IMG/VR virus record: IMGVR_UViG_3300013102_000030
Span: 96,001-160,000 of that record
Source: a virus
Direction: 5' to 3' (one strand)
Length of the DNA stretch: 64,000 bases
In this document: piece by piece, positions 1 through 26,544 of the stretch
How the letters are laid out: every line of letters begins with the position of its first letter
Numbering within the stretch: the stretch's first letter is position 1
Translations under genes and position numbers: made by a program
The notes under the pieces: generated by a model
The model's input: the letters and a program-made list of their open reading frames with translations, nothing else
Told to the model about the DNA's origin: nothing
The model's database searches: none

Positions 1-108
1 GACCCAACACCTACGCCTATTCCAACCCCGGAAAAAGCGGTAGATGAGGAAGCCGTCATTGACGCATTCCTCGCTTTCCTCAAGAAGGAATACTTCCTAA
101 AGAAGTAA
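1..108 (+). CDS. 3' end of a gene (Pro/Thr-rich linker, ends ...KEYFLKK*), partial
   Basis: Frame 1 is open to TAA 106-108 and is followed by a terminator. Confidence 0.7.
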   Translation, partial: DPTPTPIPTPEKAVDEEAVIDAFLAFLKKEYFLKK

Positions 109-122
109 CTCGTACCACGAAG

Positions 123-153
123 AGGCAGGGACGATTTGTGTCCCTGCCTTTTC
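123..153 (+). terminator. Intrinsic terminator
   Basis: AGGCAGGGAC-loop-GTCCCTGCCT followed by TTTC. Confidence 0.75.
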
Positions 154-235
154 TGGTATAAACTGTTCATTGTCATTGCCGCTCCCCTACCAGAAAGAAA
201 AAGGCAGCCTAGAATCCCCACGACCCATTGGACTT

Positions 236-895
236 ATGAATACTCAAACAAAACTCACTGCAATTGCCTCTACTATCCTGCTCTCCGTGTGCTTGGCAGG
301 CCCCGCAAAAGCCACAACCGAGACTGACCGAACAATCCCTCCGCTTGAAGCAGTAGACGTACCAATCTCTGCGCCCACCACATCAGCACTGACCTACGAC
401 AAGCCAACTGTCACCACCAGTGCTGCTCCTGTTGTTCAGGAAGTCGCACCCGCAGCAGCGGTACAGAGCGCTCCAGCAGCCAAGACTGCTCCAGTAGCTC
501 CCGCCCCTGTTCAGACCGCTCCTGTGGCCCCTAAGGCTGCTCCAGCGCCTGCTACACCGGCACCCGCAGCACCGGCAGTTCCAGCTTCCAGCAGGGGCGC
601 TCTCCTGCTTGCATCTGCGTACTCCCAGATCGGAATCACACAGGACTGCACCGCCATGGTTGAGCACGCTCTCGCGTCCATCGGAATTATCTCCGGTGAT
701 CTCGCCCCAGCCCAGTTCTTCCGCTTTGGCCCTGTAGTCGGGTCTCCAGAACCGGGAGACATCCTCATCTCTGCTGGTCACGTAGGAATCTACGCTGGCA
801 ATGGACAGATGATCTCCGGTGGATTCAACGGAAGCCAGACGGTTCTACACCCCGTCAGTTACGTTGGTGCTTACTCTGCTGTACGAGTTGCGTAA
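236..895 (+). CDS. Secreted NlpC/P60-like peptidoglycan endopeptidase
   Basis: Signal peptide, Pro/Ala linker, C-terminal QDCTAMV...PGDIL...GHVGIYAGNG catalytic motifs; ATG 236 preferred over TTG 170. Confidence 0.8.
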   Translation: MNTQTKLTAIASTILLSVCLAGPAKATTETDRTIPPLEAVDVPISAPTTSALTYDKPTVTTSAAPVVQEVAPAAAVQSAPAAKTAPVAPAPVQTAPVAPKAAPAPATPAPAAPAVPASSRGALLLASAYSQIGITQDCTAMVEHALASIGIISGDLAPAQFFRFGPVVGSPEPGDILISAGHVGIYAGNGQMISGGFNGSQTVLHPVSYVGAYSAVRVA

Positions 896-925
896 AGTCT
901 CTCCATAGACTATAATTGAATGGAT

Positions 926-996
926 GCCTCAGGTCTCTGGCGAAGCGCGGTTCTCTCATAAGGAACTGGTAGGTGGTTCGATCCCACCCTGAGGTA
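926..996 (+). tRNA. tRNA-Met/Ile2 (CAT), degenerate D-arm
   Basis: Acceptor GCCTCAG/CTGAGGT, anticodon arm GTTCT-CTCATAA-GGAAC, T arm GGTGG-TTCGATC-CCACC; G at position 8, weak D stem. Confidence 0.75.
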
Positions 997-1022
997 CGTA
1001 ATACTCAATGACAAAGGTATAA

Positions 1023-1742
1023 ATGACAACTCCCTTCTACGAACTGCCCCTGCTCTCCCTTGACACGGAAACGACAGGTGTTGACGTGTTCACGGATCGC
1101 GTGGTAACATGTAACATCACATATGACTACCCTGACGGTCGAGATCCCTTCATTGCTGACTGGATCATCAATCCGGGAGTTCCGATCCCGCAAGGTGCAT
1201 CGGATGTGCATGGCATCACAGACGAAATCGCTCAGAGAGATGGCGGTGACCCGTTCACGGTGCTCACCAACGTAGCACAACATCTCAAGTACTGGGGCGA
1301 TCTTGGACTTCCTTACGTTATTTACAACGCTAGTTTTGACACTACTATCCTTATGGCTGAATTTGACCGTTATGGCATTCCTCAGCCTACTGGGTGGAAT
1401 TGTGTTATTGACCCTTTGGTACTGGATAAAGGGGTAGAACCATATCGAAAGGGAAGCCGAAAGCTGATTGACACAGCGCGGCACTATGGCATAGAATTGT
1501 CGGAAGAAGACGCGCACAGCGCAAACTTTGACTCCATGGCTTCTGTCAAGATCTCACGAGCCATCGGGCGAAAGTATGAGATCGACTCCCCACTGGATGA
1601 GGTCCACGCGCAGCAAGTCATCTGGAAGGCAAAGCAGGCCAAGGGTCTACAGGACTACTTCCGGAAATCCAAGAATGATGACACCATCGTCATCAACGGA
1701 GAATGGCCGTTCCAGACAAGAGAGTTGACACCAACTTTCTAA
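1023..1742 (+). CDS. DnaQ-like (DEDDh) 3'-5' exonuclease
   Basis: LDTETTG, VHGIT, YNASFD and AHSANFD motifs. Confidence 0.9.
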   Translation: MTTPFYELPLLSLDTETTGVDVFTDRVVTCNITYDYPDGRDPFIADWIINPGVPIPQGASDVHGITDEIAQRDGGDPFTVLTNVAQHLKYWGDLGLPYVIYNASFDTTILMAEFDRYGIPQPTGWNCVIDPLVLDKGVEPYRKGSRKLIDTARHYGIELSEEDAHSANFDSMASVKISRAIGRKYEIDSPLDEVHAQQVIWKAKQAKGLQDYFRKSKNDDTIVINGEWPFQTRELTPTF

Positions 1743-15247: not shown

Positions 15248-15541
15248 ATGACCAAACCAGACTACGCTCTAGAGTACGTCTTTCGACGTAGCCAGTTCAA
15301 CCGTACCATGTGGATTCTTGTCGCTATCTGGGTGGCACTGCGCCTTTGCCGTGCCCTCATTATCCTCACTGTGGGACTCACATGGCTTGCGTCTATCCCT
15401 GCCATGATCATCTTCTGGGGATCAGGTCTCATCTGTGGACTGATCCTTGCCACATACTATGTATACCGCCGCTCCGTGCGTATTGATTCAATCGAGCGCG
15501 AGAGGAGTAACATAGCCAAGCTAAAAGAAAAGGTAAAATGA
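15248..15541 (+). CDS. Membrane protein (2 TM)
   Basis: Hydrophobic segments; GGAG RBS. Confidence 0.75.
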   Translation: MTKPDYALEYVFRRSQFNRTMWILVAIWVALRLCRALIILTVGLTWLASIPAMIIFWGSGLICGLILATYYVYRRSVRIDSIERERSNIAKLKEKVK

Positions 15542-16722
15542 CCGAAACGTACATCTTTGACCTCATCAATGGTGCAGAGCTTTTCAAGATGCAGCAGGAA
15601 GGCCGCATCAACCGACAGGTTCACCCTAAGCTTCCGATCTCCATCTTCAACTACACAGCCGCAGCACAGTTCAAGAACATCTGGACTGACGCTGAGCGGA
15701 TCTGCCGTGGCTTGATCATTGAGGACGGAACCGGTAAGGTGATTGCCCGTGGACCGTCCAAGTTCATGAACTATGGTGACCCCAAGGCTGCTGAAGTCTC
15801 TCTGGAGGACGAGGTCTGGGTTACCCGGAAGGAAGACGGCTCCCTAGGCATCGGCTGGGAGTACAATGGTGAGTTTGGTGTTGCTACCCGTGGTTCCTTT
15901 GACTCTCCTCAGGCACGACACGCTACGGCCAAGCTGACTGAGGAAGAAAAGCAGGACATCCTGAGTGAGCGCACCAAGGGCCGAACCGCCATCTGGGAGA
16001 TTGTCTACCCTGACAACCGAATTGTCCTAGACTATGGTGATAGGGATGAACTGATCAAGATCGGTGGAGTCCGCAACGATTCCGGCCTCATCTCTTTGCG
16101 CCCTTTCAAGCTCTTCATGTCCATCCGCAAGGGTGGAAATCCCGTGATGACCTTCAAGGAAGCCCTTGAGCTTCCAATTCCGGATGACCAAGAGGGTTAT
16201 GTCATTGACATCCTGAAGGACGGATGGATTCAAGGCCACGTCAAGCTCAAGGGTGAAGCCTACAAGCTTCTTCACGGCCTGCTGACCAACACCAACGCTC
16301 GCCGGATCTGAATGCAGCTTGCGTGGAGGGCATGCAAGGATCTTCTGCCCAACGATCCCAAAGTGATTGCGTTCCGACTCGGAAACGACCCTCGGGACTT
16401 TGAGCGGATTGACACTACCAAGACCATTGAGGAGACCTTCCTTGAGAAGGTTCCCGATGAGTTCTACGGATGGGTGACCAAGCAAATTGACAGCATTGAA
16501 GACAATGTGTACAGTCTTACAGGTCAGGCAAAAGTCCTGATTGACAAGATTGCTGATGTCTCGGACAAGCGTGAGCGCTGGGAAATGGCCAAGGATCACC
16601 CGCTCTGCACTGAGATTCTGAGGGCTAAGAACTCTGAAGACCTCTCCGGATGCACCGTCTTGGCTTGGAAACTGTCCCGTCCGGGTGACGAGACTCCCTT
16701 CAAATCAAAGGAAGAAGACTAA
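15538..16722 (+). CDS. T4 Rnl1-like RNA ligase interrupted by an in-frame TGA at 16309-16311
   Basis: CRGLI, KF.N, KEDGSL, ATRGSF.S.QA, NRIVLDY, EGYV, VKLK motifs; ORF 16312-16722 continues in the same frame. Confidence 0.85.
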
Positions 16723-20960: not shown

Positions 20961-21770
20961 GTGGCGCTACCAACAAACATTAGCTATGGCACAGTAGTAG
21001 GACAGTTCTTGGCCGCGATTCAAGACGGGCCTGACCCTGACAAGCTCCCAGAAGGTATCCCTATGAAGGGTACCGTCACTTTTGTGGCTTCTCCTGTCTA
21101 CGTTCTAGACTACACCGCCAACCCCAACCCTGTCACGATCCTCAAGACACCTATCACATGCTCTCTGGACTCAGAGGGCTATCTGTGTGCACCTTACTCA
21201 GCGTCTGACTCTCCTCTGTCTCGTGGAGTTCCGCTGATTGCTACGGACGATCCTGACATCCTGCCTATCGGCTGGACATGGAGTGTCATCTATAACCTCA
21301 CGGACCCGTACGGCAACCGAGCCAACCTGCCAACACAGAACATTGCTGTTCCATCCGGAGTCACTACTGACCTTACCACAGCAATGAACATTGCTGCTGC
21401 CAACGGCTCCATCATCACCAAGGGTGCCACCGGAGATCCCGGAGACCTTGTCGGAGTCACCAACGGAGGATCATGGGGAAGCTCCGTCACGCTTTCCGCG
21501 TACCCTCAGACCTACATCTCCACCCTGTCTGCCTCTGTCACGTCCCTGACGCTGCCTACAGAGGTCTATCCGAATGAGTCTGGAACAATCACCCTCGTAC
21601 TCACTCAGGACGCTACAGGAGGCCGTACAATCACGTGGCCTGCTTCCGTCAAGTGGCCTGAGGGAATTGCTCAGCAGCCAGCAGCGGCTGCAAATTCAAT
21701 TTCGGTGATTCATCTTCTTTGGACAGGAACAACATGGCTGGGAATGCTAGGAGGTAAGAGCTTTGCGTAG
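20961..21770 (+). CDS. Minor tail protein
   Basis: YGTVVG.F N-terminus, L.ATDD...P.GWTW, short GXX linker, LTQDATGGRTITWP. Confidence 0.75.
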   Translation: MALPTNISYGTVVGQFLAAIQDGPDPDKLPEGIPMKGTVTFVASPVYVLDYTANPNPVTILKTPITCSLDSEGYLCAPYSASDSPLSRGVPLIATDDPDILPIGWTWSVIYNLTDPYGNRANLPTQNIAVPSGVTTDLTTAMNIAAANGSIITKGATGDPGDLVGVTNGGSWGSSVTLSAYPQTYISTLSASVTSLTLPTEVYPNESGTITLVLTQDATGGRTITWPASVKWPEGIAQQPAAAANSISVIHLLWTGTTWLGMLGGKSFA

Positions 21771-24700
21771 AGACAACTTTGACAGCGGAAGTCAACCAGT
21801 CCGCAACCTTGCCTACATCCCAAGCTTTGAAGTTGCCAGCGGAACAGTCAACACCCGAACTAACCTGTACAAAGATCCTCACTGTGAGGGTGTCAGTGGG
21901 TCAGTAACTGTCCGTACAAACCTCTGCACAAACCCCGGACCACAGGCTGTAGGCGGAACCACAACAACCATCCGCACCAATCTAAGCACTAACTCACGTG
22001 GTGTCAGTGCCTTGCCCGACTACAACGGTGCTAGTTATCAGACCATCACTACAGTAACAGGGATAACAGGGCATCCGGAAGGCATCACGACTGCCAACCG
22101 AGTAAGCTACAATGCAGGGGCAACCAATCCGGGAGTAGCTCTGCTCAATCCTGCTCAAGCAAACACTAAGTACACGATTAGTGCATGGGTATACCACGAG
22201 ACCGTACCTCCAGCAGGAGGTCAAGCCTTCGCCATGGCAGGACTCACCAGCAGTACACCAACAACACCTGTAGCAGGGGTTTGGCAACGTTTGTCATGGA
22301 CCTACACTACCACAGCATCACCTAGTTACTTTGGTTTCCGTGTAGCATCTCCTACAGGATCAGGAAGCTTCCTCATCACCGGAATTCTCATTGAGAGGTC
22401 CGGATTTCTTGGTGACTTCTTTGACGGTGCAGGAGCCAGTAGAACCAATCTCGCCAATGATCCCCGCGCTCTAACCATTACTGGCACTACGGGAGTAGGA
22501 TGGCGCAATAGTCGTTGGTTCGGTGGGAACGGTACCACTGTCGGTACTCATACTAATATCACCGGTATGCAGGATGGACCTACACCGCAACTAACCACCT
22601 ATATCCGTAAGCAGTGGACTGGGGACAACCTCAGCACCAGTAACGGTGACACCGGATTTGAGTTGTCCACAGGCTTCAACACTACAGCAGGCGTAGCTTA
22701 TGCCGGAGGATGGAGTGTCCAAGCCGGTGTCACATACTCTCTTTCAGCATGGCTGCGCCCCACCAGTGATAAAGGTAATGCTGGATTTGATATGACGTGG
22801 AGAGATAGTGCAGGATACTATATCACACGAAGTACCTTCTCCACGTATACGCTTCCCGCGAACGTCTGGACCCGTGTCACTGCCACAGTAACCGCACCCT
22901 CAGGAGCGATCACAGCAGGTCTCGTATTGGACGTAGATGGCGGTTCGTTGTGGAAGTCAGGGGAATCTCTCGACGGCACTGGTCTCATCATTGAGCGCAC
23001 AGACACTCCCAGCACTATCTTTTATGAAGGAACTGGTGACTTCAGCTACTCATGGACAGGAACAGCCAACAATTCGGCCAGTATCCAGACCGCCGCAGGT
23101 ACTCCAGCTATCGGTGGAGCTAACAACGGAATAACGTACAGAAGTGGTATCTCAGGGAACTACTTTGCCCGAACTTTCTTCACCAGCGATCAGATCATGG
23201 ACAGTGGTCCGAGCCTTCAGGGTACAGCCCCCGGACTAACAGCCAGCAAGACCTATACCTTGTCTGTAGATGTATGGGTAGATCGAGACCGCACCTATAG
23301 ACTAAGCGTACAAGGGAACGGTACCACCAACACTAGCACCAGCTTTACGCAGACCGCAGGAACCACCGTCCGCAGAATCATCACATTCCAGACGAATGTG
23401 TCGGCTACAGGACCATCAAACGTTGCACTGTACGTGCTCCGTAGTGATGTGCTGCCCGGATATATTGATGTATCTAAAATCCTCATCGAAGAGGCCCCCC
23501 AAGCTCTTCCATATTTTGATGGTAGCAATCCTGTCCGTAATCTTGCGGCAGGCACTAACCCTTCTGCACTAAGTGGTATTACAATGACCTCTGGGGTCTC
23601 CTACAAAGGAGATACATGGAGGCGAGCCAGTGTTGCCGCAGGAAACAGTGGTTGGATTGTTAGACAATACGTCAATCTTTTCGACCTGATTCCGGGGCAA
23701 ACCTACACCGCAGCAGTCACCGTTGCCAATGACAGTACCGCTGATAGTGTAAGCATTGCGCTGGATTGGTGCGACACAGCAGCAACTACTGTTACACTTG
23801 CCCCCGGTGAGGTACGTCGCCTCAGGGTCACTAACAGTAAGGCATCCTACAGCAACGTATACCGGTTTGCCGACCTACAGGTAAACCAGAATACCGCAGG
23901 TAGCCGCAGTGTACTTTTCAAGGATTTCACTGTAGAGTTTGGTGCTACACCCGGCTATCAAGGCGCAGCAGATTACACTACCGCGTGGACTGGTGTAGTC
24001 AACGGCTCCACTAGTACGATGACGGCTCCGCTTCCCGGAGGGTGGTCTAAATCTGGCAACACTGTCGTCATCCCGACCACTGAGGGAATCAGCGGTAAAG
24101 GTATCAAAATCATCAAGAATGGAGGGTACGGATTCGTTGGAACCACTCTCAGCGGTCTAGCTGTAAGCACTGCCTACACATGGTCAGCGGATATTTTGAC
24201 GAGTCAGACCACTGTCAACACTGTGGACCGAAGCAGTCTCGTCGGCGGGTATAGCCCGAGTGACAGAACTGTCGTGTCCGATCTCGTGACCAGAATTCAA
24301 AGGACCTTTACCACTGGACCGAGTGAGACTACCAGAACCATCAGTATCGCTGGATGGGAGAATGCTACCGTGCCGGATGGCAGCATCCTTATCATCGACA
24401 ACATACAAGTAGAAGCTAACGGGCAGGCTACTCCCTTCTTCTCGGGAGACACACCAGCAGCTAATGAGTTCACCTACGCATGGACCGGAACTCAGCACGC
24501 CAGCACCAGCACCGAGACAGCACCGGGAGCCAGTGGATACACTGGATCATACAGCAACCGTATCGCATGGCAGTCTACCCAGTGGAGCGCCAGTGGTACC
24601 AAGAGCCTTGCAGTTGCCGGTGGTGCCCCATCACAGGACAGCTTCAGCCAGTTCGGACAGCCGTATCCATTCCCAGCGGACTTCGCCGGGAAGACTTACA

Positions 24701-25611
24701 CTATACTTGCCCGACTCCGTACTGAGGAAGCTTTCCCCGTAGGGGCAGACGGTCGAGCATGGGGCGTTCATATAGCCGTCAACACCACTGGGGCGCAGGT
24801 ATTTTTTAGCCTCCGTCCAAACAACTATAACACTCTTCCGGCAGGGGTCTATGAGGTCCGTCAAACTATCACCATGCCTGCCAATGCCACAAACATCTCT
24901 TTCATGAGATTCTATAACGGCAGTCCAAACCGGACAACCGTATGGTGGGACAACTTCATGGTGGTGGAAGGACGCTACGATGGAGGATATATCAACCCCG
25001 ACCAAAACCCCCTTGCCAAATGGGACGGTGCGGCGAACGTTAGCACAAGTGTAGGATATCCTCCTACCCTTCTTGAACTTGCCGGAAAACCTAGCCTTGA
25101 GTTGGTAGGGGAAGGCATCTCTCCTACGACTACAGTTGACGGTTTTGTTGCCAGAACGCTCTATGCTGTATACGAGGTAACAGATATCAACCAAGGTAGC
25201 TGGCAGGTTCCGATTATCTATGGAGTAGCAAGCAGTGAAGGATACACCCTTCAGTCCAACTCAGCAGGAACTATCCAGATGGTACCACGAGCAGACTTTG
25301 CTACTGGTGGCGGAAATACCAATGCCACCACTGGATTCAATACAAGGACTTCGGGCAGAGTCCATGTTATGGCTTTTGCCTTCAATGATGGCTTGACGAG
25401 CATGCTTGGAATGGGAAACGGAGCTACTGATGTACAAAGAACATTGGTACCCGGAACTGTTGGGTGGACTAAGCATAAGCTTGAAATCCGCCCCGCAGCC
25501 CAAGGTATGCGTGGTGTGTACGCGTCTGTGTATATGGGGGAGCATTCCCGAGCTACCCGATTGGCTATTAGCCGATATCTCGGAAATAAATATGGAGCAA
25601 ATGTCGCCTAG
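21763..25611 (+). CDS. Large minor tail/receptor-binding protein with about six CBM-like repeats
   Basis: Repeated RTNL..NP, Y.[LI]S.W, ...E...FDG and W.G...S.S motifs; Thr/Gly/Ser-rich. Confidence 0.8.
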   Translation: MRRDNFDSGSQPVRNLAYIPSFEVASGTVNTRTNLYKDPHCEGVSGSVTVRTNLCTNPGPQAVGGTTTTIRTNLSTNSRGVSALPDYNGASYQTITTVTGITGHPEGITTANRVSYNAGATNPGVALLNPAQANTKYTISAWVYHETVPPAGGQAFAMAGLTSSTPTTPVAGVWQRLSWTYTTTASPSYFGFRVASPTGSGSFLITGILIERSGFLGDFFDGAGASRTNLANDPRALTITGTTGVGWRNSRWFGGNGTTVGTHTNITGMQDGPTPQLTTYIRKQWTGDNLSTSNGDTGFELSTGFNTTAGVAYAGGWSVQAGVTYSLSAWLRPTSDKGNAGFDMTWRDSAGYYITRSTFSTYTLPANVWTRVTATVTAPSGAITAGLVLDVDGGSLWKSGESLDGTGLIIERTDTPSTIFYEGTGDFSYSWTGTANNSASIQTAAGTPAIGGANNGITYRSGISGNYFARTFFTSDQIMDSGPSLQGTAPGLTASKTYTLSVDVWVDRDRTYRLSVQGNGTTNTSTSFTQTAGTTVRRIITFQTNVSATGPSNVALYVLRSDVLPGYIDVSKILIEEAPQALPYFDGSNPVRNLAAGTNPSALSGITMTSGVSYKGDTWRRASVAAGNSGWIVRQYVNLFDLIPGQTYTAAVTVANDSTADSVSIALDWCDTAATTVTLAPGEVRRLRVTNSKASYSNVYRFADLQVNQNTAGSRSVLFKDFTVEFGATPGYQGAADYTTAWTGVVNGSTSTMTAPLPGGWSKSGNTVVIPTTEGISGKGIKIIKNGGYGFVGTTLSGLAVSTAYTWSADILTSQTTVNTVDRSSLVGGYSPSDRTVVSDLVTRIQRTFTTGPSETTRTISIAGWENATVPDGSILIIDNIQVEANGQATPFFSGDTPAANEFTYAWTGTQHASTSTETAPGASGYTGSYSNRIAWQSTQWSASGTKSLAVAGGAPSQDSFSQFGQPYPFPADFAGKTYTILARLRTEEAFPVGADGRAWGVHIAVNTTGAQVFFSLRPNNYNTLPAGVYEVRQTITMPANATNISFMRFYNGSPNRTTVWWDNFMVVEGRYDGGYINPDQNPLAKWDGAANVSTSVGYPPTLLELAGKPSLELVGEGISPTTTVDGFVARTLYAVYEVTDINQGSWQVPIIYGVASSEGYTLQSNSAGTIQMVPRADFATGGGNTNATTGFNTRTSGRVHVMAFAFNDGLTSMLGMGNGATDVQRTLVPGTVGWTKHKLEIRPAAQGMRGVYASVYMGEHSRATRLAISRYLGNKYGANVA

Positions 25612-25686
25612 GGGTTGACACGTTGTCTTTCTGTAGAGTATCGTAATTCTTATCAGGAACACCGATACTCTACAGAAGGGCACATC

Positions 25687-26544
25687 ATGAAAAAGATCGC
25701 AAGCACCGCAACCGCTGTACTCCTCGCCTCCTCGGGGCTTCTCTTCGTAGGGCAGGCCGCGAACGCCATGCCCTGTGACCTCCCCGGAGCAGGATGTACG
25801 GGTGACAGCAACACCGGCTATCCCGGAGGAGTCGCACCGACTCCCGATCCGGGGAAAGGACATGATCCTGTGACATTCTGCCACAACGGAATGCTGAAGA
25901 CAACTGACGACGACGGAGAACTCCATGGTCACAAGACCAAAAAGGGAGAGCACGTCAACGATGTCTTCCGCGAAGACCTTGGACGTGAGGTAACAGAAGC
26001 TGACTGTGCCGTCGTCACGGAACCGGTGAAGCCCCCTCAGCCTGCACCGGAGTTCCCGGAAGGCAACGTGGACATCACCTACCAGTGTGACGCGGTTCCC
26101 ATGACCCGAACCGATCACATCACCTACAAGCGGATCGACTACGTCTACGACGCTCCCAGCAATTCGTGGGTGAAGGGTCCGGAGCAGGTCACGGACGGGG
26201 TCTACGTCTTCCCGCTGACTGACGAGCAGGCGCAAACGTACTGCGGAGTTGCCGTCACCCCTCCCGTACAGGAGACTCCTCCGGCTGTGACTCCTGACGC
26301 TCCGGCTCCCGAACAGGCTGCACCGGAGGCTCCGGTAGCTCCTGCTGTCGTCCCTGCCGCTGAGCCTGCACCGCTGGCAAATCTCGGTGGACAGGTCCCT
26401 GCAAGCAACGTGGAGCAGGCAGCACAGACGCAGGCACCCGCCGAACTTGCCTACACGGGCTTCAACTGGGGAATGTTCGGAGCCGCGATCCTCTCGCTGC
26501 TTGGCGGATTCGGACTCATGCGGCTGAAGCGGAAGCTCGCATAA
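25687..26544 (+). CDS. Cell-wall-anchored surface protein (LAxTG sortase motif)
   Basis: Signal peptide AANA, Pro/Ala linker, LAYTG, TM helix, RLKRK tail. Confidence 0.8.
   Translation: MKKIASTATAVLLASSGLLFVGQAANAMPCDLPGAGCTGDSNTGYPGGVAPTPDPGKGHDPVTFCHNGMLKTTDDDGELHGHKTKKGEHVNDVFREDLGREVTEADCAVVTEPVKPPQPAPEFPEGNVDITYQCDAVPMTRTDHITYKRIDYVYDAPSNSWVKGPEQVTDGVYVFPLTDEQAQTYCGVAVTPPVQETPPAVTPDAPAPEQAAPEAPVAPAVVPAAEPAPLANLGGQVPASNVEQAAQTQAPAELAYTGFNWGMFGAAILSLLGGFGLMRLKRKLA

Follow-up and report, generated by a model that had tools for sequence, protein, structure and literature searches.

How is a protein folded when four copies of a short repeat, which looks like the first strand of a domain, are stacked at its N-terminus and several later domains have no such strand of their own? 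The question is raised by a 1282-codon open reading frame (ORF) with a TTG start at 21763-25611 (+) in a 64,000-nucleotide stretch of viral DNA (positions 96,001 to 160,000 of IMG/VR record IMGVR_UViG_3300013102_000030), the whole of which is called the window here. Three elements could be recognized in its product: short repeats (openers, RTNL..NP), bodies ending in FDG-like motifs, and linking motifs (closers, W.G....S.S). The initial annotation had read them like brackets, with each domain inserted after the first strand of the previous one. The analysis described here makes it very probable that the openers complete later bodies, either within the chain or in trans, and a nested topology, in which this happens within one chain, is favoured with good but lesser confidence. 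The product is probably a minor tail protein of a large Arthrobacter-type phage, with six sandwiches like carbohydrate-binding modules (CBM) of families 4, 16 and 22 and a C-terminal lectin-like domain, arranged as a four-level nest.

The openers, FDG-like motifs and closers were all found where the initial annotation had put them. V/T-R-(T)-N-L openers lie at residues 13, 32, 51 and 71 (nucleotides 21799, 21856, 21913 and 21973). Two further ones, at residues 227 and 591 (22441 and 23533), do directly follow an FDG motif (FFDG at 219 and YFDG at 584), starting 4-8 residues past it, and they begin the self-contained domains B and D, a placement consistent with the two side branches in FDG loops that the initial annotation had proposed. 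FDG-like motifs occur at residues 219, 420 (FYEG), 584, 892 (FFSG) and about 1072 (RYDG), and closers at 431, 742, 907 and 1087 (23053, 23986, 24481 and 25021). The bodies past closers 1-3 (residues 446-587, 757-895 and 922-1075) have no RTNL opener of their own, as had been claimed for three later bodies, and the orphan openers share their motif with the first strand of the contiguous domains. Since over 100 homologs contain a 19-residue opener (consensus VRTNLATNPSfEtasGtvt) as well as an 18-residue closer (fTYaWtGTANASTSvq), the motif pattern is not a product of chance. One more closer-like match to the regular expression, at 22615 (residue 285, RKQWTGDNLSTS), lies within domain B in a low-confidence loop and had a low score with the closer hidden Markov model (HMM); it was rejected as a closer and belongs to the conserved RKxW motif of the domain B type.

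Residues 1-1110 were modelled with AlphaFold2 from a 30-sequence alignment (mean predicted local distance difference test, pLDDT, 73), and the topology was deduced from the model residues at which VIA structural alignments start and end. The opener region was modelled as paired strands (E13-15, E25-34, E43-53 and E67-73; pLDDT about 57-80). The CBM16 chain 2zey_B was placed on model range 13..1070 with 141 of its 144 residues aligned (root-mean-square deviation (rmsd) 2.0, Z 15.4), and CBM22, CBM4 and CBM61 chains were placed on 49-54..577-583 with 136-146 residues aligned. As single CBMs of about 145-167 residues were aligned nearly in full over these huge ranges, opener 1 would be strand 1 of body F and opener 3 would be strand 1 of body C. 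Contiguous alignments were obtained for the three domains that begin with an opener of their own (69..214, 227..413 and 591..728), which served as an internal control that the aligner adds no distant residues gratuitously. No VIA row was obtained for body E, even in a wide search aimed at E and opener 2; because this body is poorly modelled, opener 2 was assigned to it by elimination only. Whole-model Foldseek matches (reelin, Cry and Vip toxins, GH101) were long multi-domain superpositions with very high rmsd and were set aside as uninformative on topology, and a PDB sequence search found no solved relative.

A second, independent AlphaFold2 model was made from a 13-sequence alignment for P0070, a 775-residue homolog with three openers and three closers and without extra domains. 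Its pLDDT was 79.9 overall and 75-90 in the opener region. CBM16 was placed on 13..565 (Z 15.5) and CBM4-2 on 33..383 (160 of 167 residues, Z 15.0), ranges by which opener 1 belongs to the last body and opener 2 to the middle one. Nesting of at least two levels is therefore present in the predicted models, with 13..1070 enclosing about 50..580 and this in turn enclosing 69..214, and three levels are direct in P0070. The initial annotation had expected opener 1 to pair with the last body, opener 2 with the one before it, and so on. The first pairing was seen here (13..1070), the first two were seen in P0070 in the predicted order, and that of opener 3 with C was given by VIA; the part concerning opener 2 and E stands by elimination alone. 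The contrary outcome, N-terminal openers folding together or disordered, was looked for in the models and was not seen.

The N-terminal stack was also docked in trans with ESMFold2, with residues 1-66 and residues 424-1110 given as separate chains. The score was 0.58 (runs 0.57, 0.64 and 0.58), whereas the best of three controls reached 0.00; the three runs shared at least 85% of their contacts, and the result was rated as weak support. In calibration 58 of 80 solved complexes attained the docking mark, as did 2 of 110 mismatched pairs, and scores of at most 0.60 belonged to 7 of the 80 solved complexes and to both passing mismatches. These counts hold roughly here, a custom alignment having been used, and halves of a protein of known fold may pass by likeness to solved structures. 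The N-terminal peptide had a pLDDT of 71-73 with the later bodies, against 22 when an unrelated protein was the large chain.

If each orphan opener completes one opener-less body, the two should be equal in number, and this can be checked among homologs. Opener and closer HMMs were used to parse 36 full-length homologs bearing both the N-terminal and the C-terminal signatures, from 762 homologs in all. Orphan openers and opener-less bodies were equal in number in 28 of the 36 by automated count, across classes with 1, 2, 3, 4, 5 and 6 orphan openers, so the comparison of nesting depth suggested with the initial annotation gave agreement in counts together with variation in depth. The rule spans homolog lengths from 555 to 2371 residues and differing module contents. 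In a shuffle control of 100,000 trials the mean was 7.6 matches and the maximum 18, and 28 or more were never reached. Inspected by eye, the misses were mostly degenerate repeats skipped by the detector (THTNL, YRINL, VRTNQ) or a weak closer. In the 36 homologs closers mark the entry of the chain into an opener-less body, into the C-terminal domain or, in rare cases, into another stack of openers, and nowhere else; in none of them does a closer separate two contiguous domains. Together with the VIA ranges in the two models and the weak docking in trans, this balance bears out the bracket-like parse with insertion after the first strand. Motif counts imply up to seven levels in P0012 and P0048.

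The first rule tried, that stacked openers equal closers, held in 16 of 33 homologs by automated count; it fails on tandem double closers and was replaced by the rule on orphan openers and opener-less bodies. A regular-expression count of opener runs in proteins of more than 2000 residues was dropped as too noisy. In the tandem double closers the two motifs are spaced by about 20 residues and enclose no body; they were seen in P0072 (431/451), P0011 (368/388), P0009 (419/439), P0033 (49/69) and P0050 (372/392). Split opener stacks, in which a domain and a closer separate a few N-terminal openers from a second stack, were observed in P0019 (residues 13-52 and 235-273), P0022, P0046, P0047 and P0051. 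They imply several nested children in one level, and P0019 is still balanced, with four orphan openers and four opener-less bodies. The homologs have a conserved outer shell (leader, last body and C-terminal domain), whereas the interior is a mosaic of about 25 module types by strict body clustering; the clustering did not resolve the order of insertion, and single-linkage clustering of bodies at E <1e-8 merged almost everything and was discarded.

In the proposed architecture the chain would first lay out four openers of 19-20 residues, each bearing the first strand (RTNL..NP) of a domain. Opener 4 alone would run straight into its body (A), and the extra complete domain B would come next. 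On the return leg, each closer (F/Y-x-W-x-G-x4-S-x-S) would precede about 140 residues wrapped on an opener left for them, the order now being reversed: opener 3 would receive body C, to which the extra domain D is attached, opener 2 would receive E and opener 1 would receive F, and the C-terminal domain would come last. Both termini would be at one end of a rod, with the innermost A and B at the other. The first half of an opener (G-T-V-x-V) may pair with the closer strand F-T-Y-x-W and form a two-stranded neck between levels, which is proposed because the opener strands are 10-11 residues long in both models and the CBM alignments start at the second half only. The two chain segments crossing each junction should stiffen the rod, and folding would proceed inside-out. 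The conserved termini would be virion-proximal and the variable interior distal. A segment from opener to closer would be a balanced cassette, exchangeable without breaking the fold, and such exchange agrees with what the homologs show, a mosaic interior within a conserved outer shell. There is about an even chance that an entire family of actinophage tail proteins obeys a strict bracket grammar of this kind, with detached first strands, self-nested rods of 2-7 levels, termini at the virion end, exchangeable cassettes and inside-out folding. A design rule for receptor-binding proteins is suggested by it, namely conserved termini together at the attachment end and an exchangeable interior bounded by opener and closer motifs, which could guide swaps of binding modules in laboratory studies of phages and hosts.

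Several points weigh against a nest within one chain. The structural evidence is all predicted, and the pairing is read solely from the end residues of structural alignments. The alignments behind the models are shallow, and the pairing of opener 2 with the poorly modelled body E was not seen directly. Eight of the 36 homologs miss the automated balance, and some carry the tandem double closers, which are outside the simple grammar; moreover the homologs are mutually related, so the shuffle control overstates their independence. The gene sits among genes of nucleotide metabolism and replication and not in a tail module. Finally, most tail fibres are oligomers, and from a monomer prediction it can not be told whether a body is completed within its own chain or by a strand exchanged between subunits.

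The last point leads to the alternative that survives best, although it is an unlikely one: the opener array of one subunit would complete the bodies of its neighbour, giving a domain-swapped dimer or trimer. Such a complex would satisfy the balance rule equally well, the N-terminal stack did dock as a separate chain, a result rated as weak support, and it would suit the oligomeric habit of tail fibres. However, both monomer models close every domain in one chain with good confidence, the fixed spacing of 19-20 residues between openers suits a strap running from level to level in the same molecule, and neither a coiled coil nor a collagen repeat was seen in a by-eye reading of the sequence.

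Somewhat less probable again is a tandem arrangement like beads on a string, in which the 19-residue repeats would be a separate shaft or attachment and the strand after each closer (S.S.Q.A) would be strand 1 of the next domain. Repeats this short (15-20 residues) are characteristic of the shafts of trimeric fibres. Moreover, MAFFT on pieces cut at the closers sets WTGTANNSASIQTA opposite RTNLSTNSRGVSAL, and the predictors saw one chain only. Against this, openers take the place of CBM strand 1 in the models of F, of C and of two bodies of P0070, and the motif of the orphan openers recurs in strand 1 of the contiguous domains. A shaft needs no exact match of one repeat per opener-less body across the classes from 1 to 6, and the N-terminal peptide gained confidence in docking only with the later bodies. 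The models put the 19-residue repeats in later domains and not together, a check that covers monomers only.

A nest within one chain presupposes that the opener stack is translated. The gene call of the collection for the source genome (P0002) has 1199 residues and starts at residue 84, by which the leader side of the protein (residues 1-83, 21763-22011) and all four stacked openers are cut off. In homologs the N-terminus MRRxQxDxxSQxVRNL is kept in 46 cases, and homologs of 30-45% identity share the leader and the run of 19-residue repeats; residues 3-9 of the leader were modelled as a helix with low confidence. The ribosome-binding site GGAGG and the conserved N-terminus make the long reading frame a real gene, and the long form is read as the real protein since the leader and repeats are kept in homologs and gp188 of phage Mimi is annotated in its long form with the same 8-nucleotide overlap with its upstream gene. 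By these signs of the sequence the TTG at 21763 is the true start. That the first 83 codons are untranslated, with an opener stack present by mere chance in an upstream open frame, is very improbable in spite of the collection's own call, as GGAGG stands 8 nucleotides ahead of the TTG, the leader and openers are conserved at the protein level in dozens of homologs, Mimi gp188 has the long form with the same overlap, and a start at residue 84 would take away strand 1 of domain A too. A structure prediction or an expression construct made from the genome's own gene call would hold four incomplete domains. Several homologs begin within or past the opener stack, and database copies of this family may be similarly trimmed. 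If the nested reading is true, the architecture would be hidden in databases wherever gene callers trim the stack. The features of the locus are collected in Table 1.

Table 1. Features of the tail gene with the proposed nest and of its immediate upstream region in the window (body and opener assignments follow the predicted models)
Feature	Residues	Position	Strand	Remarks
Upstream partner gene, tail-fibre-like	269 in total	20961..21770	+	phrog_9017, E 9e-22; 8-nucleotide overlap with the start of the ORF at 21763
Ribosome-binding site GGAGG		21750..21754	+	strong match, 8 nucleotides 5' of TTG at 21763
Conserved N-terminal leader (M/L-RR-x-Q/N-x-D-x-x-SQ)	1-12	21763..21798	+	kept in 46 homologs
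Orphan opener 1	13-31	21799..21855	+	predicted strand 1 of last body F; VIA ranges 10-18..1069-1076
Orphan opener 2	32-50	21856..21912	+	putative strand 1 of body E, by elimination; strand E25-34 paired in model; P0070 equivalent
Orphan opener 3	51-70	21913..21972	+	predicted strand 1 of body C; VIA 46-54..577-590, CBM22/CBM4/CBM61, Z 12-14
Opener 4 and body A, ends FFDG	71-222	21973..22428	+	innermost, contiguous; VIA 65-76..211-215; pLDDT 86-93
Opener 5 and body B, ends FYEG	227-423	22441..23031	+	extra self-contained domain, innermost level; VIA 225-228..413, CBM4-2, Z 14
Closer 1, FSYSWTGTANNSASIQT	427-445	23041..23097	+	return linker into body C; strands E427-432, E439-445
Body C, ends YFDG	446-587	23098..23523	+	opener-less, predicted to be completed by opener 3; Pfam CBM_4_9 over residues 480-558
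Opener 6 and body D	591-735	23533..23967	+	extra self-contained domain, level 3; VIA 591-593..727-738
Closer 2	738-756	23974..24030	+	motif position
Body E, ends FFSG	757-895	24031..24447	+	opener-less; poorly modelled, pLDDT <50 at 816-840
Closer 3	903-921	24469..24525	+	motif position
Body F, ends RYDG	922-1075	24526..24987	+	opener-less, CBM16-like, predicted to be completed by opener 1
Closer 4	1083-1100	25009..25062	+	motif position
Conserved C-terminal domain, ends ...SRYLGNKYGANVA and stop	1101-1282	25063..25611	+	conserved columns; lectin-like sandwich in homolog model

The claim that the protein is a carbohydrate-binding appendage is supported at the level of fold. Pfam CBM_4_9 (PF02018) was matched with 31.8 bits against a cut-off of 25.9 (E 2.1e-7), the best stretch being in body C; it was the sole match in Pfam, where the other bodies fell below sequence detection. 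In the predicted models the jelly rolls of bodies A, B, C, D and F could be superposed on solved CBMs of families 16, 22 and 4, with Z of 13-15 (15.4 for 2zey_B, 14 for 1h6x and 2y6j). PHROGs gave phrog_14138 (minor tail protein, E 1.1e-11) and phrog_27130, and homologs in phages of Arthrobacter, Microbacterium and Brevibacterium are called minor tail proteins, by annotation only. Both the tail annotations and the CBM folds suggest a tail appendage that binds host-surface (cell-wall) glycans, which would be the probable role of the protein. For the C-terminal domain, residues 596-771 of P0070, which correspond to 25063-25608 of the window, matched the lectin modules of botulinum-toxin HCN, NTNH and PilC (Z 13.7, rmsd 2.9, 163 aligned), a likeness of fold only at 8% identity. 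Pfam had no match for this domain, nor for the upstream or the downstream gene. One structural match of P0070 (7oa7) spans 10..771, giving a hint that the extreme N-terminus adjoins the C-terminal domain.

The nested tail gene lies between a PhoH/RecA-like ATPase and genes for a nucleotidyltransferase, helicase and primase, with an RNA ligase and a polynucleotide kinase also nearby, and its only tail-like neighbour is the overlapping upstream gene. The overlapping pair (20961-25611 in the window; gp187/gp188 at L001 4426-10522 in Mimi) is found amid replication genes and far from an obvious tail module in both phages. Judged from gene arrangement and homologs, the source is a large Arthrobacter-type phage related to Mimi, Racecar and Talia1610; a search of the phage collection at the nucleotide level yielded no close relative.

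The third codon positions were said to be more AT-rich than those of the flanking genes, and this was borne out. The GC content at third codon positions (GC3) is 0.49 in 21763-25611 against 0.52-0.69 in 15 flanking genes, and the GC content at four-fold degenerate sites is 0.40 in the nested tail gene against 0.55. In Mimi, GC3 of gp188 (L001 5201-10522) is 0.467 against 0.58-0.70 in 12 of 13 neighbours. As Mimi gp188 has the same deficit, low GC3 would be an old property of the gene family. The inference of recent acquisition can not be kept, for Mimi gp188 occupies the same syntenic slot, with the same 8-bp overlap and the GC3 deficit, at 31% protein identity. The deficit of about 0.15 is seen in both phages despite this low identity, and codon selection or repeated exchange with a gene pool of lower GC are candidates for it; the eight tRNAs in the window gave no obvious explanation.

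Growth by recursive self-insertion, also proposed at first, is unproven. Likeness among the bodies is remote (27-32% identity, in partial alignments with E of 1e-5 at best), and the DNA of the nested tail gene holds no repeats, so any duplications would be ancient. Recent self-duplication is not supported by these data; ancient recursive insertion is plausible.

Two observations were made on the neighbouring genes. The downstream ORF (25615-26544, with a probable ATG near 25687) encodes a signal peptide, a Cys-containing head, a Pro/Ala-rich stalk, the motif ELAYTG, a hydrophobic helix and RLKRK, and its product looks like a phage-borne class E sortase substrate, as far as these sequence features tell. 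Its GC content of 0.60 is above that of the tail gene, and Mimi gp189 is of similar size and in the same place. The RNA ligase region at 15538-16722 reads as two adjoining ORFs (15538-16311 and 16312-16722); in Mimi the RNA ligase is a single gene, after which comes a distinct hypothetical gene.

Among known proteins, Mimi gp188 (minor tail protein, 1773 residues, with relatives in Racecar and Talia1610) is a syntenic homolog that shares the leader, opener stack, closers, C-terminal domain and low GC3. It differs in having six openers and six closers instead of four, in its interior modules, and in its Pfam matches, PF00754 (F5/8 type C) and PF22633. It is recorded as a plain minor tail protein, and no description of its topology was found in the literature. 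Bacterial CBM16, CBM22 and CBM4 modules (2zey, 1h6x and 2y6j) have the same fold as the phage bodies (Z 13-15.5, rmsd 2.0-3.0 over 140-160 residues, 10-19% identity), but they are contiguous, and simply tandem if repeated, as in CBM22-1-CBM22-2 (4xup).

The "evolved Dit" adhesion proteins are likewise tail proteins of phages of Gram-positive hosts with inserted CBMs, and in Dit of phage p2 the galectin domain is interrupted just past its first beta-strand (PMC7291167). Their insertions stop at one level, where one or two CBMs sit in a host domain of another fold, and recursion, opener stack and closer are all absent; no sequence relationship with the nested tail protein was found in Pfam, PHROGs and PDB sequence searches.

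A parallel in topology is SI3 of cyanobacterial RNA polymerase, which a 2026 survey of 2.7 million domains described as the extreme case, with eight domains in a six-level recursive insertion (PMC13114784). In SI3 (beta' subunit, rpoC2), as in the phage protein, one small beta fold is repeatedly inserted into itself, and SI3 forms an elongated arm of several domains. The fold is a sandwich-barrel hybrid motif in SI3 and a CBM jelly roll in the phage protein, and the protein class and function differ. In the phage protein the break is always just past strand 1, the N-terminal halves are shrunk to a 19-residue repeat, and a closer marks each return. The depth varies from 2 to 7 among close homologs in the phage family; SI3 has experimental structures, whereas the phage protein is known from predicted models. 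If true, seven levels would exceed the six-level record reported for SI3. Domain insertion is common, deep nesting is rare, and SI3 is its precedent. A literature search of incomplete coverage found no earlier report of nested CBMs or of an opener/closer grammar in phage tail proteins, nor of deep nesting in CBMs. What is new here is apparently recursive nesting in a new fold and a new protein class, in which the sequence grammar is regular and the predicted depth is four, or up to seven by motif count in homologs. If the prediction holds, the phage family would be a second natural system of deep recursive nesting beside SI3, and the range of 2-7 levels among similar proteins would offer a natural series for the folding and evolution of discontinuous domains.

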